This document shows, piece after piece, positions 4,937-20,405 of a stretch of DNA of 64,000 nucleotides. The stretch comes from a bacterium (GTDB taxonomy: Bacteria > Bdellovibrionota_C > UBA2361 > CALJRW01), in NCBI GenBank assembly GCA_031385045.1, contig JANNBC010000013.1, positions 42,880 through 106,879 of the forward strand, in the 5' to 3' direction. The notes below the pieces were generated by a model. The model ran no database searches. It saw only the letters and a list, made by a program, of their open reading frames with translations, and had not been told where the DNA came from. The translations under genes and the position numbers were made by a program. The first letter of the stretch is position 1, and each line of letters starts with the position of its first letter.

Positions 4937-6606
4937 TCAAAGATTGTGATGTTTGCATTATTGGTTCCGGTGCCGGTGGATCCCCAATTGCCTTTGAGCT
5001 TGCGAGTGCAGGATATTCTGTAATTGTCTTAGAAAAGGGGCCGTGGTTTAAAGAAAATGATTTTGCTAAAGATGAGCTAGTAGCAGTGAGACGAAGTGTC
5101 TATACACCAAGTCTAAAGCAAGAATTTCATGTGCTTGAAACTGGCAAAGAGAACAATTGGAAAGCTCAATCAACTTTAGATTCGGGTAGAAACTTTTGGA
5201 ACGGAAACTGTGTTGGAGGATCTTCTAATTTTATGAGTGGTTACTTCCATCGTTTAAAGCCCGAGGATTTTCGACTGCTTTCAGAATTTGGAGCGATTTC
5301 TGGGGCTAATATTGCTGACTGGCCCATTAGCTATCAAGATCTCGAGCCTTACTATGCTAAGGTTGAAAAAATTGTTGGCATCTCAGGAAGAATCATCGCT
5401 CATCCCTTTCAAGAACCTCGCTCTACTCCAGATTTTCCATTTCCACCACTTCAAGAAAATTATGTTAGTAAAATAATTGATGACACCTGTGCTCAATTAA
5501 ATTTTAATTCTGTGCCAGTTGCCCGAGCAATTCTTTCACAACCTCATAACAATCGAGCAAGTTGCTACTACTCTAATTTCTGTGGAAGCTATGGTTGTCA
5601 TAGCGGAGCCAAGGGTAGCGCCCGTGCTGCCCTTTTAGATCTCGCTGTTAAAACTGGGAAATGTGAGATTCGTCCCCATTCTTTTGTTTATCACCTAACA
5701 AGTGACAATCAGGGAAAGGTAAATCTTGTGAAGTATTATGATCGCGAAGGACAAACACGACAAGTCTCAGCCCAGATTTTTGTAGTAGCCTGCCAAGCAA
5801 TCGAGACTAGTCGTTTACTCTTAATGTCTACTGGCAGTAAACATCCTGAGGGTCTTGCCAATCACAATGGTCAGCTTGGTAAAAATTTAATTTTTTCTGC
5901 AGGAGCAACTGGCAATGGCACAATTCGACTATCTGACTATCCAGAAGACATCGCCCAGCAATTAAAACTTCCCGGACTCTTTGTTAATCGCTCTTTGCAA
6001 GACTGGTATATTGCTAACGATAGTTCATTAGGTGGAAGGGTTAAAGGGGGACTTATTGATTTTCTTTTCGATCATGCTAATCCAATTCGCCGTGCCAATA
6101 GTCTAAAATGGGAGGGTGATCAATTACTATGGGGCGAAGCACTTCAAAATCGTCTACAAGCAGGATTTACAAATGAAAGACAACTAAACTTCGAAGTCTT
6201 TAATGACTGGCTCCCAACCGATAATTGCTTTGTAGCTCTAGATCCTACCAATAAAGATAAGTGGCAAAATCCTGTAGCCAAAGTTAGATTAGGATATCAT
6301 CAACACGACTTAAAAATTGCTAAATTTCTTGGTGAAAAAGCTAAATCAGTCTTAGAAGCTATGAAACTTAAAAACATAACGACCAGTGTCAGTGGGGCTC
6401 CGCCCGCCAATCTTGTCGCTGGTGGTTGTCGCTTTGGAGTCGACCCTGACAAGCATATCTTAGATCCCGACTGCCGAGCTTACAGTGCTAGTAATTTGTT
6501 TGTTGCTGATGCTAGCTTTATGCCTACGGGAGGCAGTGTTCCATATACTTGGACAATCTACGCCAATTCATTTCGAGTAGCAGATAAGATTAAAGCTCAA
6601 CTTTAA
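4933..6606 (+). CDS. GMC family FAD-dependent oxidoreductase (dehydrogenase large subunit)
   Basis: GSGAGG FAD-binding motif, VGGSS, WPISYQDLEPYY, CYYSNFCGSYGC Fe-S-type Cys cluster, C-terminal GGCRFG/DASFMPTGG. Confidence 0.93.
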   Translation: MIKDCDVCIIGSGAGGSPIAFELASAGYSVIVLEKGPWFKENDFAKDELVAVRRSVYTPSLKQEFHVLETGKENNWKAQSTLDSGRNFWNGNCVGGSSNFMSGYFHRLKPEDFRLLSEFGAISGANIADWPISYQDLEPYYAKVEKIVGISGRIIAHPFQEPRSTPDFPFPPLQENYVSKIIDDTCAQLNFNSVPVARAILSQPHNNRASCYYSNFCGSYGCHSGAKGSARAALLDLAVKTGKCEIRPHSFVYHLTSDNQGKVNLVKYYDREGQTRQVSAQIFVVACQAIETSRLLLMSTGSKHPEGLANHNGQLGKNLIFSAGATGNGTIRLSDYPEDIAQQLKLPGLFVNRSLQDWYIANDSSLGGRVKGGLIDFLFDHANPIRRANSLKWEGDQLLWGEALQNRLQAGFTNERQLNFEVFNDWLPTDNCFVALDPTNKDKWQNPVAKVRLGYHQHDLKIAKFLGEKAKSVLEAMKLKNITTSVSGAPPANLVAGGCRFGVDPDKHILDPDCRAYSASNLFVADASFMPTGGSVPYTWTIYANSFRVADKIKAQL

Positions 6607-8813: not shown

Positions 8814-9278
8814 ATGGAACAAAGCAATATTTTTACTGAAATCCTTTTTGCTGGAACACTCTCAGGATTAGTAATCACTAGCCTAGTCACTTATATCTTT
8901 CATTTAATTTGGAAGAACTCGGGGTTCAATATTTCACCAGTCAAAGCTATTGGAGATGCCCTAGGAAATAAAGGCATTAAGAGTACAGGGGTTACTAGCT
9001 TGGTAGCTCACTTACTAATAGGTAGTATTTTAGGAGTTGTTTATTTCGCGTTACTATCTAAATTCAACCTCCCACCACTTCAGTCGATTCTAGCATCTAC
9101 CGCAATTGGCTTTGGTCATGGGTTTGTTGTTGCCTTCCTAATTTTTAATAGTCTCAATGAGAAAGCAACAACAAAAGACGTCCGTGATTTCAGCCCAGCA
9201 ATTAGTATTATCTACTTAGCGGCTCATGTAATTTTCGGACTAGTCATTGGAGCTCTTTACGCTAGCCTGATCGCTTAA
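8814..9278 (+). CDS. Small four-TM membrane protein
   Basis: Four hydrophobic helices, three carrying His residues (AHLLIG, GHGF, AHVIFG). Confidence 0.6.
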   Translation: MEQSNIFTEILFAGTLSGLVITSLVTYIFHLIWKNSGFNISPVKAIGDALGNKGIKSTGVTSLVAHLLIGSILGVVYFALLSKFNLPPLQSILASTAIGFGHGFVVAFLIFNSLNEKATTKDVRDFSPAISIIYLAAHVIFGLVIGALYASLIA

Positions 9279-9988
9279 AATCTAAATGTGAGATAAGCAG
9301 CAAGGGCTGTAATCCGACGATCAGATTTATTTAAACGATCACTAGTCTCTACAAAGTATCCAACTTCAACTCTTGTTTTTTTATTATCCCAGTAAGGTCC
9401 AAAAAAGATTCGATTGCGATCGTAGCCAGACTTAACACTTGGCTTAACGGCATTTAGATTATAAAAATATTCATCATAAGCTGTTAAACCAACGACTGCT
9501 CCATCAGCCAAATCCATCAGTGGGTGAGAAACTCTAAGTAAATAGCGCAATCGATTAGCCTCTCCGTATACGCCCTCGATATAACGCTCTTCCAGACGTG
9601 CCCGATGATTAATCTGCCAATTACCAAAAGTCTGATCATAAGTTACTTGTTGCCAAATGCGTTGCTCATCATTGAACTTATGGTTATACGCCGAATCCAT
9701 AAAAAGCGGTGTCCAGGCATACCCTAACCATAAAACAAGATTTGGCGCTAAGGCATAACCAACGGCCGGGCGAACTAATAAGCGCTCAGGATAACTAACA
9801 TTGTCTCCAATCCTAGGTTGTAACTCTGCTGACCAACGCCAGTTAGAGCCTTCCTGAAACTTACCATTGGCCATAAAAGCTGACCAAAGCTGTGTATCAT
9901 TCTCTGCCGACGCTAAGCTACAAAAGCAAATGAACTGTAGAGCTAAAAAATAGCTAAAAAATAATTTTTGATAATTTTTTGTAAACAT
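9275..9988 (-). CDS. DUF2490 family outer-membrane beta-barrel protein
   Basis: Signal peptide, EQRIWQQ, HRARLEER, NRLRY and DRNRIFFG motifs, terminal Phe. Confidence 0.85.
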   Translation of the reverse strand: MFTKNYQKLFFSYFLALQFICFCSLASAENDTQLWSAFMANGKFQEGSNWRWSAELQPRIGDNVSYPERLLVRPAVGYALAPNLVLWLGYAWTPLFMDSAYNHKFNDEQRIWQQVTYDQTFGNWQINHRARLEERYIEGVYGEANRLRYLLRVSHPLMDLADGAVVGLTAYDEYFYNLNAVKPSVKSGYDRNRIFFGPYWDNKKTRVEVGYFVETSDRLNKSDRRITALAAYLTFRF

Positions 9989-9999
9989 AAGTTTTACCC

Positions 10000-11289
10000 T
10001 TAAACTATATAATTATAAATCTTGAGTATTAGATCTGGCCCTAAGCCATTTACTAAAACAATAAAAATTAAAATAATTAGCGCCAGCTTTTCACGCAATT
10101 TTGGTTGAAATATTTTATTATAAATTTGTAATGGATTTCCATAAAATGAATCTCCAAAAATTCGAAAGCAAGAATATCCATTTAAGGCTAAAGCAAAAAC
10201 AAAGCACCCCGCCACCAACCAGTATTCCTGACTTAGATTATGAAGTAGAATTTCGATACTCATAAATCCTAACGTCCCAGGAAATCCAATTAAGGATAAA
10301 ACACAGAAAAGAAAAGAAAGACCAAATACCGGAAATGAGATCGCCAGGCCTGTTGCGGAATCTAAATTTTCTGGACCAATTCGATCTCGAAGCATAGCAA
10401 TAATAATCACTAAACTACTAATGCAAATGGAAGTATTAAAAAAATCCATAATCGAATGAATTTCGGAACCATGCTGCACCAACAGACCATTTAAAATAAA
10501 GAGCGGGACGTGCCACTGATAAAGGGAAGAAGCAATCCCACTCAACTTCCGCTCTCCAAATAAAATCAAAGCAGAATATAATAAATTAGCGGTTAGCATG
10601 ATTAAAATAATCTTTGGATATAAATGAAAGGCTGTAGTCATTAAAAAACCAAACTTGCACCAGAATACAAAACCAATATTCAAACGAATAATTGCCGCCA
10701 AGCCATATCTAGTTGGTGCTAAGAAAATTGGCTTAACCCAAAAATGAAACGGGAAAATTCCTACCATTAATGCCAAACTTAGGATGCCTAGAATAATTGT
10801 TGTTAGAGTTAAATGACTGGCAGAAGTCTGTAGCTGGCTAATAGTAAATAGACCATTAAAGACAGTCAGATTAACTAACAGCAAACTAAGTAAGCCAATG
10901 GCAATTAATGAAAAGCCACTAAATACTAAAAAGTAATGACTCTGCTTAATAGTTTGATAAACATCTTGTCGGCTAATTCGGATATGAAGTAACAGAGCGC
11001 AGGTAATAAAAAATATAAACAGCAGAAGACTGTCTGTTAATAAGCAAAAATTGATTAACAATTGCAGACAAAACCAACTATGCGAGAAGCGAAATTTAAA
11101 GATCCTAGAACCAAACGCTGAATAGACCAGTGTCAACATCAAATTAAAGATCACTCCACAGAAGAGAGTTGGAGTCTGCAAAACTGCTTCCGAAATAAGT
11201 CCTAAATCTGTAGCATTTGGATTACTAAATAACCAAACAAATAATGCCAAAAAGCAAATGCTGATTAAGGTATATAAATTTCTAATCAT
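10000..11289 (-). CDS. NuoM/MrpD-like proton-translocating membrane subunit
   Basis: GIFPFHFW and LIGFPGTLGF..E antiporter-like motifs; co-oriented with dabB and dabA. Confidence 0.8.
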   Translation of the reverse strand: MIRNLYTLISICFLALFVWLFSNPNATDLGLISEAVLQTPTLFCGVIFNLMLTLVYSAFGSRIFKFRFSHSWFCLQLLINFCLLTDSLLLFIFFITCALLLHIRISRQDVYQTIKQSHYFLVFSGFSLIAIGLLSLLLVNLTVFNGLFTISQLQTSASHLTLTTIILGILSLALMVGIFPFHFWVKPIFLAPTRYGLAAIIRLNIGFVFWCKFGFLMTTAFHLYPKIILIMLTANLLYSALILFGERKLSGIASSLYQWHVPLFILNGLLVQHGSEIHSIMDFFNTSICISSLVIIIAMLRDRIGPENLDSATGLAISFPVFGLSFLFCVLSLIGFPGTLGFMSIEILLHNLSQEYWLVAGCFVFALALNGYSCFRIFGDSFYGNPLQIYNKIFQPKLREKLALIILIFIVLVNGLGPDLILKIYNYIV

Positions 11290-11293
11290 TGCC

Positions 11294-12619
11294 TTACTTA
11301 TGAATATTAAATTTTAGGAAGCGATAAAAAACTTTCTCAAACAAATGAAAAAGATATTCATTACAACGAAGATCAAAATATCTAAGCCCAGTAGAAGTTT
11401 TCTCAAGTAGATTTAAGACACTCCATTTATCAGAAAAACTGGAGTAGTTCTCCCAAAAAACATAAGCATAGATTTTCTGCCAAAAAGTATTCCGCGCTGG
11501 AACCTTCTTCGGCTGATACTGACCAATTGTATGCTGAAAAGCTTGATGATCATGCAGGAGTGAAGCAGCATTAAGCAGTTGGTATGTTCGCAGCAGTGCA
11601 TGACCAATAAAGTGTACTAAAACAATTGTCGTCCAGCCAAATCCAATCTCGATAAACATTACTCCTACCTGTGTCATGGCCGAAAATGCTAGCGTGCTTT
11701 TAGCATCACTTTGGATTTTGGCTAAAATCGATCCGTACAACACGGTTGTTAAGCCAACTAAAACTAACAAAACGGCAAACCAGACTGGACGACCAAGGCT
11801 TTCTGTAATCCTTAGTAGTAAATAAATTCCAGCGTGCACCGATAGACCACCATAAAAAATAGCACTAGATGGGGTGGGACCTTCCATTGCTTTTGGCAAC
11901 CAGTGACCAAAAGGAAACTGTGCCGACTTCCCCATCGCTGAAATCAAACACAAAATTAGGATTAAATTAATTGTTAGTGGCTGTTGAATACCACGCATAT
12001 CTGTAAAACTTAAAATCCCTAAGTTAAGTACAATTAATGAAGCTAATAATAAACCAGTATCAGTAACGCGATATGCCCAAAAAGCCCGTAGGGAATTAGT
12101 AACAGTCTGCTTACGAAATGAGAAGAAGGCAATCAATAGAGCTGAAGTTAATCCTACAATTTCCCAGCCAATAAAAATTCCCGTTAAATTTCCAGACAGG
12201 ACAATTAAATGCATCCCAAAAAGAAAAAAGTGATAAAGGACAAAGAATCTGAAATAACCAAGATCTCGATGCAGATACTTGGAAGCAAACACACCAACAA
12301 TCGCGCCAAGTAAAACATTTAAACTGACAAAGGCTAGCGATAGATAATCAATTAAAAACTTAATCGAAATAGATTCCTGTCCAAAGTTTAGCAAATCAAT
12401 ACTAAGAAATTGCAGCTGTGAGTGACTATCTAATAAGAAGCGAAACCAAACAACACTGAGTGCAATGAACGATAAGGATTGAGAATAAAGAATAGTCTTA
12501 ATAACTAATTTTTCACTAACCCTTCTCTGCACCAAGCGATCAATGACAATCACCAAAAGCGATAGAACTGGTAAAATAAAAATCAGCTGTGCTGCTAACT
12601 GTGAAATTAATTTAATCAT
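11294..12619 (-). CDS. dabB: DabB/NuoL-like proton-translocating subunit of the DAB inorganic carbon transporter
   Basis: FIGWEIVG, KSAQFPFGHWLPKAMEGPTPSSAIFYG; directly downstream of dabA. Confidence 0.88.
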   Translation of the reverse strand: MIKLISQLAAQLIFILPVLSLLVIVIDRLVQRRVSEKLVIKTILYSQSLSFIALSVVWFRFLLDSHSQLQFLSIDLLNFGQESISIKFLIDYLSLAFVSLNVLLGAIVGVFASKYLHRDLGYFRFFVLYHFFLFGMHLIVLSGNLTGIFIGWEIVGLTSALLIAFFSFRKQTVTNSLRAFWAYRVTDTGLLLASLIVLNLGILSFTDMRGIQQPLTINLILILCLISAMGKSAQFPFGHWLPKAMEGPTPSSAIFYGGLSVHAGIYLLLRITESLGRPVWFAVLLVLVGLTTVLYGSILAKIQSDAKSTLAFSAMTQVGVMFIEIGFGWTTIVLVHFIGHALLRTYQLLNAASLLHDHQAFQHTIGQYQPKKVPARNTFWQKIYAYVFWENYSSFSDKWSVLNLLEKTSTGLRYFDLRCNEYLFHLFEKVFYRFLKFNIHK

Positions 12620-12624
12620 GACTA

Positions 12625-15555
12625 CTACCTAATCCTTAAGAAATCTAAATTATCAGTTCTGGTAATAATCTTTTCTAAATAATTGTTACTAATTGGTAGG
12701 GTAATTAAATCAACTGGCTTCTCTCTAAAATTACCGTTAACATCATACTCTAAGAAAGTATTACTTAACTTATCCCAACAAACCAACCTCACCCAGTGCC
12801 CCCCAACCATTCGGCGAACCGTTGGGTCAGACTGAATTGCTTTTTGTAACTGTTCCAGCTGACAGCTAACAACCATTAGCAACCTAACTGGCTCGTGAAT
12901 CTCAATCATTTGCTGTGGAAGTCCTGTTCGTAAATCACTACAAGTTCCATTCATTAAGCCCAACATGGAAACAATATTATGTGGTAGTTTCGATCCAGCT
13001 CCGTAAACTTCGTTATCAAGTGCTGAGAAGAAATATTCTAAGTTAATCCCACCACATACTGGAACAATCGCACGCATTATACCTGCTAGGATTTGTGCCT
13101 CAGCATCCTGAGTAGAATCATAAGAAACTAAGAATGATCTTCGATCAAAGAATAGATTTTTTGTTTCCTCTCTTTTACCAACAAAGCACAAAGCATTTCC
13201 AGCATGCCCATATTCTGGCCGAGGCTCTGATAGAGTTTGAGACCGGGAATTCACTTCCTTAAAAGCAGCTAGTGGAGTTCGTACTGAAATTTGAGCAAAA
13301 CGTCGACAACGCTCTAAGGAATTATTCTGACAGGCCTGGACCATCAAATTTTTGATATCTGAAAATAGTTCTTGATGAGAGTCAGGAAGTAAATCTAGAT
13401 CATAGTACTGAATCTGGTCATTACATGTATTGTGATAAGCACCAATACAAAGAGTATCTTCTGGGATGATAATCCCAAAGCGATCCCGTAAGATTCTTCG
13501 AACAATTGGCTTATTAAACATCATCGCAATCACGCGCGCATTCATTCGCCCTGGCCTACCACCGCAAGCTCCACAATCATACGCCGAGCGCAGGGGATTA
13601 TTACGACTAGAAGATCCATGTCCATAAAAGACAACTAATCTACTAAAACCTTTAATCAGTCCAATTGTTTTTAAAACATTTGCGACACGCTCAGCCATTT
13701 CACCTTCGGTATAACCAAGAGTCTGATCATCTGCCTCTTCTAGGGAAGATATTTCAATTTCTAAATCTGAAAGTTCGGTTGTAAGCGATCCATCTAAATC
13801 AAAGAACTTACTAAAAGGTTTTCTGAGACGCGGAAAAAGAATACTAAAGAGCATCGGAAACAAAGAAAATATTCCGATAATTGTCATCAACCAGCCATGT
13901 AAAATTGAACCAGAGAAACGAGTTAAATAATTATTGAAATACAGATTAACAAATTGTCTTTTTTGCAGATTAAGTAAGCGATGACTGGCATCATCTTTTG
14001 GTTTTTGACGAACGATATGTGTTGGCTTAATTACAATTGGACAATATGGAGCATGTTCACCACTCATTGACTCATAAATAGCATCAATCCCAAAAAATCC
14101 AGCTGTCCCAAAAGTTTTGATTGCTGGATTTAAGATCTCTAAATGCCGGCGGATTGACTCTTCCCGATCATCTAAACAAAAAACCATTTGTGCTAGTGCA
14201 TCTGTTTCTGGAATTGAATTATTAACATTAGATTTTAACGTTTTTAACGCTCGCTGATAAAGATTTTCTTCGTATGCTAAATGTAGAATTCTCTGTCTTT
14301 TAATTTTTGGATAAACTAAAATCTGCTCAAGCAGATTTTCAAAATAATCCTGATTAGCAAAAACTGATAAGATATCTTTAGTATCTAAAACAACAGTGAA
14401 TAAGTGATAAGCCAAGAAGAAAAGCTGATCGATTCGGCTCAGTGCCGCGCGGTTGGGTAGCTGTTGCTGAAGTAACAGTTCGCTAGAGCAAGATTTTCTA
14501 GCTAAATCTGATAACAGAATTCTTAAAGTCACATATTCCAATAAACTTGGTTTAATTTCTTGAGTTAATTCATGTAAATATTCTGGATTTTTCTCTGCAG
14601 AACAAATAAACCCAGCCCAACCCTTAAGCGCTAGGACTTCGCTAAAAATTAACTCCTTGGCTTCACTTGAAGTTAATTCTTTTTTAGCCAATATTTCTAG
14701 TAATAAATCCTGCGGCTCAACTCCACGGTAATAAGCAATATCTTTAGTAATCGGAGTTAGCCACTCTGGTAAGTATAGGTCTGACTTCTCCACAAGTGCG
14801 TAGAAAGATTTTAAAATACCCACGGAGCGATTCGGCATCGAGATCGTAGCTTGTCCCAGATCTAGGTACTCTTCACAAAATCTAATCAAAAATGGATCAA
14901 CTTTTTCCCTAACAATGGAGTCTTTATCAGCAAATTCAGAATGATAAGAAAGTTGCTTTGCAGCCACAGCCAGCAGACATCTTGTCCAGAGAGCCTCTTT
15001 GACTATTTCGCTTGGTATATTATTTTTTAATGTTGCCTCAACTAAATTTCGTAATCCAATAGCAGCCTGCCGATTAATTTTTTCAAGGAATTTTGTTTCC
15101 GCCTGAAAAGTTTCTGAAGACACCCAAGTTTTAGCGTGGCTCACAACTTCAGAACTTACAGGTAAATGTAAATCTGATTCTCGTAGCAACCATTTAATTT
15201 GCTGAAAAGTTTTTGCTTCAGGAGTATTAACTAAAATACTTTTGATCAACACTAGGTTCTCTGGATCAACATTGGCATCATTTAAAACATAGTCCAAATC
15301 ACTAGCAGAAATTCTTCCTTGTCGATAAAAATCAATATATTGATTTTCATCAAGATAAGCACGGGCATCAAAAATTCGCGCGCCTTCTTCTAAAGCTTCA
15401 AAGAATGATAAGTGCTCTAGTCCATGTAAAGTATTGTGATGGATGAAAACATCAATCGGCCCTTGGCTCGGTAACAATTCAGATAATTCTTCTAGGATCT
15501 GAGCAATAGTCTCAGAGCTTAGCTCCTCGTTTTTGTGATGAAATGGCATTAACAT
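12625..15555 (-). CDS. dabA: DabA (DUF2309), beta-carbonic-anhydrase-like subunit of the DAB transporter
   Basis: LPSQGPI..FIHHNTLH, FCLDDREES, GHGS and CGACGG zinc-ligand motifs, RPEYGHA. Likely start is ATG 15555 or 15549 rather than TTG 15618. Confidence 0.93.
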   Translation of the reverse strand: MLMPFHHKNEELSSETIAQILEELSELLPSQGPIDVFIHHNTLHGLEHLSFFEALEEGARIFDARAYLDENQYIDFYRQGRISASDLDYVLNDANVDPENLVLIKSILVNTPEAKTFQQIKWLLRESDLHLPVSSEVVSHAKTWVSSETFQAETKFLEKINRQAAIGLRNLVEATLKNNIPSEIVKEALWTRCLLAVAAKQLSYHSEFADKDSIVREKVDPFLIRFCEEYLDLGQATISMPNRSVGILKSFYALVEKSDLYLPEWLTPITKDIAYYRGVEPQDLLLEILAKKELTSSEAKELIFSEVLALKGWAGFICSAEKNPEYLHELTQEIKPSLLEYVTLRILLSDLARKSCSSELLLQQQLPNRAALSRIDQLFFLAYHLFTVVLDTKDILSVFANQDYFENLLEQILVYPKIKRQRILHLAYEENLYQRALKTLKSNVNNSIPETDALAQMVFCLDDREESIRRHLEILNPAIKTFGTAGFFGIDAIYESMSGEHAPYCPIVIKPTHIVRQKPKDDASHRLLNLQKRQFVNLYFNNYLTRFSGSILHGWLMTIIGIFSLFPMLFSILFPRLRKPFSKFFDLDGSLTTELSDLEIEISSLEEADDQTLGYTEGEMAERVANVLKTIGLIKGFSRLVVFYGHGSSSRNNPLRSAYDCGACGGRPGRMNARVIAMMFNKPIVRRILRDRFGIIIPEDTLCIGAYHNTCNDQIQYYDLDLLPDSHQELFSDIKNLMVQACQNNSLERCRRFAQISVRTPLAAFKEVNSRSQTLSEPRPEYGHAGNALCFVGKREETKNLFFDRRSFLVSYDSTQDAEAQILAGIMRAIVPVCGGINLEYFFSALDNEVYGAGSKLPHNIVSMLGLMNGTCSDLRTGLPQQMIEIHEPVRLLMVVSCQLEQLQKAIQSDPTVRRMVGGHWVRLVCWDKLSNTFLEYDVNGNFREKPVDLITLPISNNYLEKIITRTDNLDFLRIR

Positions 15556-15660: not shown

Positions 15661-17196
15661 TTACCCTGCTTTTTGAATCCTAGGGCTTCTGGCGATGTAG
15701 TTATTTAACTCCTGCATAAACTCTTCATCGATAAATGAGCATTGTTGGCAGTCAATTACTACTGATTGATGAATTGTTAAGGCGTTTTCGGCAACTTTTT
15801 TAACTTTTGGAAAGTTTGTAAACATCAACCCTTCAGTAAATGAAATTCGAGCCTGTTCCGAGTCACTCTCAATTACAAATTTTGGAGAGAAAACACTCTT
15901 AACAGAACGACACTTTAAACTTTCAAAAACTAAATAAAGTAAGAAGCCTCCAAATACTCCAGCTAGCAAATCAACCCCAACAGTAACAGCAAATGTTACA
16001 AAAAAGACTGCAAATGTGGACTTCCCCTGATGCCAAGCATGCTTCCACTCAGGAATTGAGAAAAGACGATATCCAATCACAATTAAAATTGCAGCTAAAG
16101 CCGCAATTGGTAAATGATTCAAGATACCTGAGAAGAAAACTACAGCGACAAAAAGTAGGCCACCATGAATGAAGTTACTTCGGGAGCTTCTAGCTCCAAA
16201 ATCGATATTTGCTTTACTACGACCGATCTCTGAAATCATTGGAATACCACCAATCAGAGCAGCCAAACTATTAGCAAATCCGATTGCTATCAGATCTTTA
16301 TTTAGATCAGCTTGCTCTTCCGGAGAGCGACTCTTGTTGATTGCCTTTACTGTTAACAAAGATTCGATACATCCGATTACTGAGAACAAAAAGATAAACT
16401 TCCAAGCAGTAAAGGTTGTTAGCGCACTCCAATTTGGAGTAACAAACCCTTGGGAAAGTGAATCTGGCAAATGAATCAAGAAGGAATCATTTAACTGATA
16501 GCTAGCACCAAAGAATTGATATGAGTGGCTTTCACCCAAAGCAAACATAAAACTAGCTGTAATTGCTAAAAGCAACACGACCAAAGCACCAGGAATCTTA
16601 AAATACTTTTTTAACTTTGGATTTAAGGAACAAACCATAACAGCAAGACTGACCAAGCCAATTATAGAAATTAATGGATTAGCTAAATGTAAGCTTTGGA
16701 AGAGATTACTGATTAACTCTAGAGGAGAATGACCGACGGCCTTCATCCCTAGTAAAAAGTAAGTCTGCTTTGCCATCACAATTAATCCGATAGCAGAAAT
16801 CATGCCATGGACAACGGAAGCAGGAATGTAATCAATTAATTTTCCTAGCTTAAAGTAACCCATCATCACCTGGAATAAACCTGAAATGAGAGCCACTGCT
16901 AAAACAGCACGATAGCCAGCTAGTAGGTCACCACCAGCACCTAACTCGGTAACGCCTGCTAGAACAATAACAATTAGTCCCGCCGGAGCACCTTTAATTG
17001 AGAACTTAGCTCCACCAATAAACCCTGTTAAGAGGCCACCAATAATTGAGGTAATAATACCTGCAATTGGCGGACAACCACTAGCCACGGCAATCGCCAT
17101 ACATAAAGGGAGAGTAATGAGAAAAACTAAAAAACCTGAGTTCAGATCCTTTACCATGTCACCGGAGCGACATTTAGAAAAAGTTGGAAAATGCAT
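15661..17196 (-). CDS. sulP: SulP/SLC26 family anion (probably bicarbonate) transporter
   Basis: DLNSGFLVFLITLPLCMAIAVASG, GGIPMISEIGRSKANI, C-terminal STAS-like domain. Confidence 0.92.
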   Translation of the reverse strand: MHFPTFSKCRSGDMVKDLNSGFLVFLITLPLCMAIAVASGCPPIAGIITSIIGGLLTGFIGGAKFSIKGAPAGLIVIVLAGVTELGAGGDLLAGYRAVLAVALISGLFQVMMGYFKLGKLIDYIPASVVHGMISAIGLIVMAKQTYFLLGMKAVGHSPLELISNLFQSLHLANPLISIIGLVSLAVMVCSLNPKLKKYFKIPGALVVLLLAITASFMFALGESHSYQFFGASYQLNDSFLIHLPDSLSQGFVTPNWSALTTFTAWKFIFLFSVIGCIESLLTVKAINKSRSPEEQADLNKDLIAIGFANSLAALIGGIPMISEIGRSKANIDFGARSSRSNFIHGGLLFVAVVFFSGILNHLPIAALAAILIVIGYRLFSIPEWKHAWHQGKSTFAVFFVTFAVTVGVDLLAGVFGGFLLYLVFESLKCRSVKSVFSPKFVIESDSEQARISFTEGLMFTNFPKVKKVAENALTIHQSVVIDCQQCSFIDEEFMQELNNYIARSPRIQKAG

Positions 17197-17250
17197 ATAA
17201 AAATATTTTGTTAAAGTTACTTATTAATTTCGATAGAAGACGCAAGAGTA

Positions 17251-17568
17251 TTAAGCTGTGGCAGGAGGCGCGCGTCCGAAATTAGTAACTTGATAACTAC
17301 TAGAAAATAATCTTTTGAATTGATAGCTAGGAATAATCGCGACCAAAGTGCGATTTGTTTGACTTGTAAAATCTTGACCTGCAATAATAAACTTCAGCAA
17401 GTCGATTGCTTGAAAACCATCTAAGTCATCCCGAGACTCAAATTTTTTAATTTCTAAAGTTTTATTGATTGAGCTGTCACAAGAATTGTGAATATCAGCA
17501 ACGGCCTGAACAAAGCCAGTGAAGACAAGAATTGTTAAAAAAAGTTTCCGAAGAAACAAACCACACAT
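17251..17568 (-). CDS. Secreted upstream ORF ending in RAPP, candidate translation-arrest (leader) peptide
   Basis: Signal-peptide-like N-terminus (RKLFLTILVFTGFVQAVA|D), C-terminal GRAPPATA*, 54 nt upstream of sulP. Confidence 0.65.
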   Translation of the reverse strand: MCGLFLRKLFLTILVFTGFVQAVADIHNSCDSSINKTLEIKKFESRDDLDGFQAIDLLKFIIAGQDFTSQTNRTLVAIIPSYQFKRLFSSSYQVTNFGRAPPATA

Positions 17569-18169
17569 AAAAATATTTAGTGCAAAGGAATTTTGATAGC
17601 AAACAAAAACAAAATTTTAGGGCTATCCAGTTTGTATCTTATAGAGGAGGTTTGTTTCTTACACAATGGACTAGTCAATGAATTTCTAAACTAGTAACCC
17701 ACACAAGTTTCCAATAGGCAGACTTAACACCTTAAAATCACTTGCTTTTTAGGCCTAATAGAAAATTTAGGTAAAAATAAAAATTTTCTTTATAAGCTTT
17801 TTGATTAAAATCAGTCCCGATTAAGAAATGTTTAACAAGTACTTATCTCTAATAGCTTTTAATCAGAACTAAAAATTATTAAAAAGTTTTTTAATAATTT
17901 CCATTAAAAAATTTTAAAGATAAAATCAAATCATATTCATTTGGTTAATTTCTCATTGATGTTGAATTATCAGATAAACCTGACGGAAGTTAAATATGTT
18001 AACCCTTTCCGAATAATTAATTTAAAATAACGTCATTGTATTTAATGTTTTTGAGTAGTACTCTTTTTTTGAGATAAAACTCAAATCCGAAAATACATGC
18101 TTATTGTCATGCCAAAGCCTTAGAAATTAACAATGGCTTTTTTACTAATTATATTTTTGTATTAGAACA

Positions 18170-18404: not shown

Positions 18405-20405
18405 CTAATTATTAATTACTGCCTTTCCTAAAAACTGGAAACTAACTTGTGGGTGATTTTTTTTAGAGTTAAAAACTCGAACCTTACCATCAGGCAGTGA
18501 TTCCAGCTCGTAATCATTGATTATTTCACTAGCTTCATGATTAGCTGCAACTAAGATAATGCCTCGATCTGTTTGAATAAAATCTAATGCTGGTAAATCT
18601 TCTCTCAATAATCGAAGAAAACTTTTATATGAATAATCAGTAATTAAGGAGTTATTAATCACTAAAGTTGGAGTTTCTGAATCCAAATTTCCAACTAAGC
18701 CAATTGGAGTGATTTCAGCAATCGTAAATGGGATTGCCTTTTCTGTGATCAGCTCATCCTCTTGATCTCTAAAGAAGAGTCCAGTGTATCCTTCTTCTCC
18801 AACGAACAAACAACAAATCTCTTCCTTGTTATAGTAATGCACACCGATCAAGGCTCCAAAGATTTCTCTCTGCTCAAGACTAACTAAATGATTCGCACAG
18901 TAAAAAGTAAGTGTTCCATCTCGTGCACTCTCTGCTAAGCAAGTCAGCTCATTATTCTCATTTACATGAATCCCAATTGGCCAATTGGGATTATTTGGAA
19001 ATTTAACTGAACGTAAATTAAACATCTGCAAAGGATCTAAGATCAGTTTCCATCCAGTGCTGGAACATAGTAATTCTGGGATAATTGCTTTCGAACTGGG
19101 AAGGACGTGACAAGGCATACTAGTAATAAAAATACTATTCTCACTCTCCTGCAAAAATTCGCCATTAAAAATACAGTGCTTCTGTCCAGCAGTCTGAACT
19201 ATGGCGTTTCCAGTAGCATGAAACTCTGGACAAGCTTGAAAAGCTTCCACTTGTTGCTGATTAATTAGAAAAATAGCATTAATAATAGGATAACCTTCAG
19301 CACATAAAGAAACAATACAAAGTGCCCGACCCCGATCTTCAATTGTTGCTTGAAAAAAAAGTTTCCCTTGATAAAAAACCGGTGAGGTTTCTAGCTCCAT
19401 TGCTAAGATTCCATCGAAGGAAGGATCGTTACTTAAAAAATCTGAATCTTCTAATTGAAAACTACTTAAATCATAATTCAGAAATGGTAAGCTCCGATCA
19501 TCTTTTGTCAGCTCGCCCCAAAATACAATTTGAGACTTGCCTTTAATTTCAACTAAGGCTGAGTGAATATCAAAGATTGGGTAATCATCAACCGAGAGCT
19601 TCTCATGTAACTCGCCCTCTTTAATTAAGTAAACAAACTTACTTGTAGCAATAATCCCAGTAGGCTTTTTTGTTTCCTTAAGAAATTCGGCATTAATAAA
19701 GTCACCATCTAAATCTACAGGGAAAATCTGATTAGACTGAAAAAGATATAACTCTCGGCCAACTTGATACACCCCTAAGGTCTGGCCGAAATCATTATAA
19801 GCCAAAACATTGAAACGATTCGGCGTAATCAAGCCAACTTTTAACATTGGCTTGCCATTAACTAATGAATAGAGATGCGTCTGATCTGCAGTGCTCGCAT
19901 CTAAATCTAACACCTCAACAATTGCCTTATTTTGAGCTGGAGCAATTTCTAGAACTCTTTTGATTCGTCCTACTTTCGTATCAATCAATACTTGTCCACT
20001 AATAAGTGGAAACTGACTGCCATAATATTCGACAACTCCATACTTCTCACCTAAAACTTGCCACCGATCTTGTACTTTAGAAATTATAGTACAGGCTAAG
20101 AGTTCATTTAAAATTCCTTCTGCCGGCAAAAAAACACCCTGATTAGCTTTTAATTGAGTGATAGATTTAAGAGCAGTAGTAAGAGATTGATCATCAACGA
20201 CAGTCGGAATCACTGCCTTCCCAAAATCAAACTCCTTAATTACTCTAACTGCATTTGCGGGATCTTTTGTTAGATCTAGTTTAAGAATTGCTACGAGCGC
20301 GAAACAAGCCCGATAAAGATCAGAACGTAAGCTCCGTGGTAAGCTTTCTTCGCACTTAACAGCATTTACAAGAACAGGAAGACTTTGGACTAAATCTGAC
20401 AACAT
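18405..20405 (-). CDS. Large hypothetical protein
   Basis: 666-aa open frame, beta-strand-like composition, no recognised motif. Confidence 0.65.
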   Translation of the reverse strand: MLSDLVQSLPVLVNAVKCEESLPRSLRSDLYRACFALVAILKLDLTKDPANAVRVIKEFDFGKAVIPTVVDDQSLTTALKSITQLKANQGVFLPAEGILNELLACTIISKVQDRWQVLGEKYGVVEYYGSQFPLISGQVLIDTKVGRIKRVLEIAPAQNKAIVEVLDLDASTADQTHLYSLVNGKPMLKVGLITPNRFNVLAYNDFGQTLGVYQVGRELYLFQSNQIFPVDLDGDFINAEFLKETKKPTGIIATSKFVYLIKEGELHEKLSVDDYPIFDIHSALVEIKGKSQIVFWGELTKDDRSLPFLNYDLSSFQLEDSDFLSNDPSFDGILAMELETSPVFYQGKLFFQATIEDRGRALCIVSLCAEGYPIINAIFLINQQQVEAFQACPEFHATGNAIVQTAGQKHCIFNGEFLQESENSIFITSMPCHVLPSSKAIIPELLCSSTGWKLILDPLQMFNLRSVKFPNNPNWPIGIHVNENNELTCLAESARDGTLTFYCANHLVSLEQREIFGALIGVHYYNKEEICCLFVGEEGYTGLFFRDQEDELITEKAIPFTIAEITPIGLVGNLDSETPTLVINNSLITDYSYKSFLRLLREDLPALDFIQTDRGIILVAANHEASEIINDYELESLPDGKVRVFNSKKNHPQVSFQFLGKAVINN

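Follow-up and report, generated by a model that had tools for sequence, protein, structure and literature searches.

The locus raised the question of whether a small open reading frame (ORF) just upstream of a sulP gene is an arrest leader that controls the operon behind it. In the window (the whole 64,000-nt stretch of DNA analysed), the ORF occupies 17568-17251 on the minus strand, encodes 105 aa (P0001) with the C-terminus NFGRAPPATA*, and is separated from the sulP start at 17196 by a gap of 54 nt. The initial annotation had described it as a signal-bearing ORF and a candidate RAPP ribosome-arrest leader, and the ORF was present as described. A leader of the RAPP/RGPP arrest class very probably gates the sulP-dabA-dabB-dabB inorganic-carbon uptake operon. 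The class itself is already known (CruR, ApdP; EMBO J 2025). New are its tie to sulP-dabA-dabB operons and a patch of Asp and Glu 41-50 residues before the Arg of the motif, in the register where metal-type leaders hold Cys.

The genes of the operon and the parts of the leader are listed in Table 1. DabA (PF10070) adjoins a NuoL-like subunit (PF00361), the combination by which DAB/DAC systems are recognized, and the substrate of the SulP protein was assigned from this context. No match to Rubisco was found in this genome (95% complete), which encodes one beta carbonic anhydrase, located elsewhere. Imported carbon would therefore serve heterotrophic carboxylation. Upstream of the leader lies a gene for a 666-aa protein (18405-20405, minus strand) without a Pfam match, syntenic in G001, a genome of the same genus.

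Table 1. Features of the putative leader and its operon in the window
Feature	Position	Strand	Basis or remark
Candidate promoter TTGTGT-N17-TATAAG, 5' of leader	17638..17666	-	Pattern from two sequences
Leader ORF, 105 aa (P0001)	17251..17568	-	ORF list; family-less in Pfam/NCBIfam
Signal-like segment, residues 1-24	17497..17568	-	Sequence and hydropathy; kept in 3/3 orthologues
Most conserved segment, residues 25-59 (D25-I26-H27, C30, acidic patch)	17392..17496	-	G001 codon comparison
Acidic patch E44, D47, D48, D50, D56	17401..17439	-	55-43 residues before R99; invariant in 3 orthologues
Length-fixed, sequence-free linker, residues 60-98	17275..17391	-	No indel in 3 orthologues
Putative RAPP arrest motif, residues 99-102	17263..17274	-	Motif kept in G001; RGPP in P0003
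mRNA hairpin (computed)	17210..17297	-	5' arm 17297-17271 (codons up to Arg), 3' arm 17244-17210
AU-rich element, -29 to -11 of sulP start	17207..17225	-	Conserved in G001; masked by leader mRNA in both
sulP, SulP-family anion transporter (PF00916)	15661..17196	-	Below BicA and DauA cut-offs
dabA (DUF2309, PF10070)	12625..15549	-	E 2.6e-206; start is the ATG aligning with G001
dabB-type NuoL-like membrane subunit	11294..12619	-	PF00361/PF00662
Second membrane subunit, NuoM-like	10000..11289	-	PF00361
DUF2490 gene, end of run	9275..9988	-	Missing at that place in G001

The syntenic ORF in G001 is of equal length and 61% identical, and ends in SGRAPPVVA. Orthologue identities to P0001 were 61% for P0002 and 52% for P0003, the latter being the one further homologue that a search of 5.8 billion proteins of similar length brought up. 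The C-terminus of P0003, ERGPPVA, has RGPP instead of RAPP; in ApdA and ApdP, Ala to Gly is the sole replacement under which arrest is retained or becomes stronger (PMC12992588).

Comparison with G001 gave dN 0.32, dS 1.02 and dN/dS 0.31. In residues 25-59, 23 of the 35 codons were identical, 9 differed synonymously and 3 non-synonymously. H27 and C30, within this segment conserved throughout, are invariant in the three orthologues. Residues 60-97 had non-synonymous changes in 31 of 38 codons, without an indel. The last nine codons had four synonymous and two non-synonymous changes, and RAPP was preserved via synonymous ones. An arrest leader had been expected in the initial annotation to keep RAPP in syntenic ORFs; G001 keeps it despite diverged flanks, and P0003 has RGPP. 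A scan of metagenome contigs with the leader alignment found no relatives, which left two DNA copies for covariation. On these sequence comparisons, the ORF is a real gene of the RAPP type, probably regulatory and of the known class.

The layout of the leader is that of the RQH class: a small unannotated ORF directly 5' of a same-strand gene, an N-terminal signal or transmembrane segment (3/3 orthologues), a spacer of more than 30 residues between signal and motif (78 here, from hydrophobic core to Arg), and a C-terminal RAPP/RGPP kept among homologues (RAPP, RAPP and RGPP; 3/3). The putative signal, judged by eye and hydropathy, has a basic n-region (R7, K8), a hydrophobic core and, at residues 22-24, an A-X-A-like end where the cleavage site was placed by eye. 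The only cysteines are C2 and C30. The linker of residues 60-98 would span the exit tunnel. Searches with Pfam and NCBIfam gave no family match (for Pfam, none at E up to 1). Of the 9,124 mechanical ORFs of at least 40 aa in this genome, 3 contain RAPP, and only this leader has it near the C-terminus. Contigs from three sediment runs matched 35 bases in the signal-coding region (window 17524-17558) with 5 differences and then diverged; these matches reflect chance or an unrelated gene.

Two further signal-bearing, Cys/His-rich putative leaders of this genome (G000) end in QAPP, at C26:138823-139257 (minus strand) and C33:7520-7927 (plus strand), and precede a TolC-like gene and a lipoprotein-TolC pair. 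This suggested that the organism employs such leaders elsewhere. QAPP leaders were present in 6 of 30 related TolC loci, those of this genome counted.

The distribution of leaders was then considered, first in the same order, where 13 of 41 genomes gave a DabA match. Ten regions from relatives were fetched, and six had sulP or a fragment of it before dabA; the leader was present in one of these six (G001), the other five being without. A single-sequence SulP scan of genome contigs gave no match, and a six-sequence alignment did. SulP alignment scans yielded at least 80 genome loci and at least 80 metagenome loci. A leader was scored when R[AG]PP lay no more than 7 residues from the stop and 450 nt from the SulP match, with a hydrophobic 12-mer upstream. 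Loci required 600 nt of upstream DNA, by which 6 genome and 14 metagenome loci were excluded as too short.

Among the matches listed, 15 of 74 genome and 12 of 66 metagenome sulP loci had a leader by this rule. Other long ORFs at the same listed loci, spurious frames included, gave 0/692 and 0/289, respectively, and an AAPP-type control gave none in either set of listed matches. Most of the leaders found were RGPP, and those of distant loci shared the design with unalignable sequences. The search upstream of sulP/DUF2309 operons elsewhere, as proposed in the initial annotation, was thus productive: signal-bearing RAPP/RGPP leaders (one RAGP case is included in these context counts) preceded 22 of the 68 listed loci in which dabA follows sulP. 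Leaders were also seen in 2 of 8 listed loci with dabA elsewhere and in 4 of 19 cut short, but in none of the 9 where dab genes precede sulP (sulP inside the operon) and in none of the 36 without a dab gene near. Selection in the orthologues and this recurrence before sulP-dabA both support the tie of the RAPP leader to the sulP-DAB operon.

By record titles, the carriers include myxobacteria, other deltaproteobacteria, planctomycetes, a spirochaete and Microbulbifer variabilis; the title of L099 conflicts with its grouping. L053 and L035 are cultured carriers, and the leaders at L053, L099 and L149 are strongly acidic. In the genus around L053, SulP was found in 1 of 58 genomes at E 1e-100. 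HAPP matches at L115 and L145 were dropped, being DabB C-termini, as was L030, which lacks the hydrophobic segment. The gaps of two deltaproteobacterial pairs (L048/L064 and L043/L058) hold common conserved multi-hairpins, the leaders having diverged.

Leaderless sulP-dabA loci were examined through 47 of 59 candidate upstream ORFs, covering 39 loci. In 17 of these a divergent gene headed the operon, for a histidine kinase in 11 and for an ECF sigma factor in 6. Short divergent HisKA_3 kinases occur at L029, L030, L033, L036, L110, L120 and L124, and ECF sigma factors at L060, L062, L066, L071, L082 and L132; both are candidate CO2 or pH regulators. Taken with the leaders, these loci suggested that the operon is usually under dedicated control, of which the leader is one solution.

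Other elements were seen in leaderless relatives. At L018:5899-5994 (G010) and L021 about 225-317 (G039), a conserved non-coding element with an invariant 13-mer lies upstream of sulP. It had no Rfam match and no unusual folding energy, and is possibly a protein-binding site or another cis-regulator. A motif of family f3, GCGTA..CTCC..GCCCC, is located just upstream of sulP at L015 (about 6555-6585, G004), L019 and L020, and forms a strong hairpin in G004 only (z -3.2). At L015:6822-10274 the operon looks decayed, with only a 99-aa fragment left of sulP and a TAG interrupting dabA. An Rfam scan of 8 relative loci gave no match.

RAPP/RGPP leaders are known to precede many gene types (Fujiwara et al., EMBO J 2025, PMC12992588). 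The claim in the initial annotation that none had been described before a bicarbonate/CO2 operon held in part. A link to DAB was not found in the published material covered, but in the RAPP source list of that paper, of which 8,420 rows were covered, at least 15 rows have a 'SulP family' downstream gene, at least 13 of them with a C-terminal motif. Its main text, as available, does not mention SulP, bicarbonate or carbonic anhydrase, SulP is missing from its RAPP top-30 table, and DUF2309 was not found in the supplements searched. Since most leaders found here are RGPP, SulP may be named in the RGPP table or Appendix of that paper. The literature search, mostly outside subscription journals, returned no leader peptide for a DAB/SulP operon and no natural charge-based arrest sensor.

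The acidic patch was spotted by eye before it was counted. Counting was done on 34 leaders anchored at the Arg (3 orthologues, 16 genome and 15 metagenome leaders), a set in which upstream DNA was short for three and the motif was RAGP in one and RSPP in another. The fraction of Asp and Glu was 0.39 at 41-45 and 0.36 at 46-50 residues before the Arg, compared with 0.05-0.14 at 1-35 and 0.12-0.20 beyond 55. In 27 of the 34, the best 8-mer for acidity had its centre 38-54 residues before the Arg. After removal of 9 near-relatives the peak was 0.38, a height reached by 0 of 5,000 circular shifts. When the leaders were anchored at the signal instead, the peak was broader and at most 0.30.

At least three acidic residues at 41-50 were found in 28 of 34 sulP leaders versus 0 of 18 other RAPP-type leaders, and at least two His/Cys at 40-60 in 5 of 34 versus 12 of 18. 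These comparators (RAPP/QAPP/HGPP; 8 DUF2946, 9 TolC-linked and 1 doubtful) are mostly of the metal type and contain near-duplicates, one probably spurious ORF and no ApdP-type set, and the counts include kin that are not independent. Searches with DUF2946 gave 8/61 and 1/41 genomes, and among 34 secD loci, from one class and two genomes, a single ORF turned up, itself doubtful. Other leaders outside the metal type may have such a patch as well. In 30 published rows inspected by eye, several leaders of potassium/proton antiporters and NhaD had acidic runs; actinobacterial antiporter leaders and 27 ubiquinol oxidase rows were mostly without them. No acidic sensor slot is described in the sections of PMC12992588 covered.

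The leader studied here is not a strong example of the patch. It has only 2 Asp/Glu inside 41-50, the patch being weaker and further out (49-55), and a net charge of -3 over 38-55 versus a class mean of -4.9.

The next question was how a stall could reach sulP. The candidate promoter 5' of the leader recurs in G001 (L022:5662-5690) with identical hexamers and a 17-base spacer identical at 14 of 17 positions. A promoter scan of the minus strand from 17874 to sulP found no promoter-like site. A promoter of sulP inside the 54-nt gap, named in the initial annotation as evidence against leader control, was thus not seen, and the conserved candidate lies 5' of the ORF. No intrinsic terminator was found on the minus strand or in the gap.

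The two pairings predicted in the initial annotation, between the N-F-G-R codons and bases past the stop, both form in the computed folds (pair probabilities 0.79-1.00), in a stem longer than had been noted. The hairpin has 23.8 expected pairs versus 5.0 +/- 4.0 in gap shuffles (0/300 as high). It had been said to stop short of the sulP start; 13 bases are indeed free, yet it reaches -14. The same annotation had suggested looking for covarying hairpins. The pairs differ even in G001, where pairing of the arrest region with the gap was 3.9 versus 8.2 in shuffles. Pairing of the arrest codons with the gap was dismissed as a class-wide feature, as such a hairpin exceeded most shuffles in only 3 of 19 loci (0, 1 and 3 of 40).

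The only conserved part of the gap is the AU-rich 19-mer. In this genome it pairs with the leader codons preceding the Arg. In G001 its partners are the final codons of the leader, and sulP +15 to +24 is paired with the arrest codons. Shine-Dalgarno sites were present at 13.6% of 850 starts in this genome versus 8.6% further upstream, so that starts are mostly without them, and the genome is A-rich at -11 and -13. The computed cost of opening -30..+13 of sulP was 8.5 kcal/mol for the free mRNA and 2.9 with a ribosome in place; for G001 the values were 8.9 and 5.5. In each genome, 2 of 150 shuffles of the leader part cost as much. The -30 window was picked after the folds were seen; with -20..+13 the gain was 4.0 here and -0.5 in G001, and under an earlier constraint model 0.2 and -1.2.

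The preference of the initial annotation for a transcriptional output was not established, since the stem covers the conserved AU-rich 19-mer (-29 to -11) and starts in this organism are mostly without Shine-Dalgarno sites. Initiation control is slightly ahead of Rho for this lineage, and the class may use both. A small hairpin in sulP codons 8-14 (window about 17173-17156, minus strand), kept with changed pairs in G001, ends at a second in-frame ATG (M14), a possible alternative start.

The following mechanism is proposed. A single transcript would begin upstream of the leader, and the ribosome would stall with its P and A sites occupied by the two prolines, by analogy with ApdA, ApdP and CruR. 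During the stall, the signal 78 residues upstream would keep the chain at SecYEG. The stalled ribosome would melt the pairing between leader and gap and expose the AU-rich element 5' of the sulP start, such that the stall is the ON state. From the folds computed for two genomes, we lean somewhat towards this initiation-based output over Rho.

The acidic patch would lie 43-57 residues from the PTC, where the nascent chain meets the translocon, and we consider it a fairly probable release element. A leader role in which it acts in that way, taken as a whole, is marginally favoured. The CXXC of CruR sits 45 residues before RAPP, a spacing that matters (PMC9426467), and the translocon insertion site is about 45 residues from the PTC (PMC7886326, PMC12002286). 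Membrane potential draws acidic stretches through SecYEG and releases the SecM arrest (PMC6028853; bioRxiv 2021.12.23.474019), although basic and polar stretches also raised release, such that simple electrophoresis is not the whole effect (PMC6028853). DAB2 is PMF-driven and requires a membrane potential (PMC13144422).

At high membrane potential the charged patch might be pulled outward, which would free the arrest and lower expression of the operon; a lower potential, or protonation in acid conditions, might prolong the arrest and raise expression. At acid pH the electrical component of the PMF is smaller and CO2 prevails over bicarbonate. That the patch reads the electrical or proton state of the membrane, with these signs, is possible, and we hold it tentatively. 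The patch gives circumstantial backing to the guess in the initial annotation of an input from membrane energisation or pH. Against a voltage reading, the patch of this very member is weak and shifted, and inducing a PMF-consuming pump at low potential would be counter-intuitive under plain de-energisation. A wider and rather doubtful reading is that the leaders are natural gauges of membrane potential or pH, in which the field pulls on an Asp/Glu patch held at SecYEG and the amount of a PMF-driven CO2 pump is adjusted accordingly. The position at 45 residues would then be a swappable sensor slot, where Cys/His respond to metals and carboxylates to voltage or protons, and it would be reused across bacterial groups, possibly also before K+/H+ and Na+/H+ antiporters.

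Alternatives were weighed at each level. It is very unlikely that the ORF is non-functional or an ordinary small exported protein, with RAPP and hairpin arising by chance. Its sequence homologues number only three, as might be expected of such an ORF, but the motif is retained while the flanks diverge, and R[AG]PP leaders occurred in 27 of 140 sulP loci versus 0 of 981 control ORFs among the matches listed. A more serious alternative, though we would put it below even, keeps the same arrest leader and gives it the output of CruR, for which there is precedent (PMC9426467): the stalled ribosome would shield a C-rich loading site, and release would let Rho terminate before sulP. This would fit any input signal. 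Rho is encoded in this genome, the leader strand has no intrinsic terminator, and no anti-initiation hairpin is shared across the class. C exceeded G in the gaps of 16 of 19 leader loci (mean skew 0.158) versus 102 of 201 control gaps (0.017), a comparison with spurious ORF pairs among the controls and with related, non-independent loci. The 60 nt before the Arg had C over G in 15 of 19, but codon bias before the motif inflates C. The gap here, at 54 nt, has only 8 C and lies largely in paired structure, and both close genomes mask the same initiation-proximal element.

As for the input, a general export monitor like SecM or ApdP, in which the patch tunes release without a specific signal, is unlikely. 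The stall would report translocon capacity or tether the mRNA to the membrane, where three large membrane proteins are to be made. The leader has the signal, spacer and motif of Sec-monitoring substrates (PMC10987492), the nearest named Atlas cluster is SecM_small (0.93, a lead only), and unalignable leaders imply no common fold or ligand site. But the downstream genes are neither sec nor yidC, the 36 listed sulP loci without dab have no leader although they too encode membrane proteins, and leaderless operons possess dedicated sensor regulators. Quite improbable is a cation sensor, in which the carboxylates, or the D-I-H that would begin the mature chain together with C30, would bind Zn2+, Mg2+, Ca2+ or Cu/Ni and fold at the tunnel exit like the CXXC of CruR. 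The D-I-H of the leader, we presume, resembles an ATCUN motif. The patch occupies the register in which DUF2946 leaders have their Cys, and the invariance of H27 and C30 fits such a site, but the segment around them is conserved all along. DabA needs zinc. Zinc-coordinating residues are present in DabA2 (PMC13144422). The order of residues within the acidic runs is free to vary, as it would not be in a coordination site, and the low His/Cys counts of the sulP leaders relative to the comparators also argue against metal binding.

The preferred reading, an arrest leader with an acidic release element, bears on two subjects. Regulation of DAB-type CO2 pumps in heterotrophs is not covered in the literature found, and what supplies the pulling force on RAPP leaders outside the Sec group is named as an open question in PMC12992588; the acidic slot touches both. 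If the voltage/pH reading is true, a force so far known from engineered constructs gains a natural regulatory use. If it is wrong, the known RAPP leaders gain a further group, whose target operon is newly defined.

Compared with known systems, the leader shares with the RAPP/RGPP uORF class (PMC12992588; the RQH family, ApdA and ApdP, PMC10987492) a small ORF with a localisation signal, RAPP three residues from the end and a same-strand downstream gene. Most RAPP-like motifs in proteomes do not arrest (PMC10987492), and ribosomes of a foreign species may fail to show an arrest (PMC12992588). The Sec/YidC monitors (SecM, ApdA, ApdP and ApcA) precede secA, secDF or yidC; here sulP, dabA and dabB-type genes follow. 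SecM has the same signal and C-terminal arrest motif, with an mRNA structure opened by the stalled ribosome, and acidic stretches engineered before its arrest peptide respond to membrane potential (PMC6028853). It differs in having RAGP where RAPP is found here, and in its downstream gene, secA.

The operon has the DabA PF10070 and NuoL-like partner of DAB/DAC systems (DabA-DabB, MpsAB, PMC13144422), and differs in its two membrane subunits, its leading SulP and a genome without a Rubisco match. In CutF of Rhodobacter capsulatus (bioRxiv 10.1101/2025.02.05.636593), a secretion-coupled stall melts a stem-loop over the next initiation region, as proposed here. CutF is a copper-induced DUF2946 protein, whereas the present leader lacks a metal motif and its stem a Shine-Dalgarno site. 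CruR (Bp2923, DUF2946) of Bordetella pertussis (PMC9426467) is likewise an exported leader with a C-terminal RAPP, a gap with C over G and a candidate sensor element about 45 residues upstream of RAPP. The leader described here has no PF11162 match, and in place of the CXXC it carries an acidic patch; CruR is followed by copper import, and this leader by carbon uptake.
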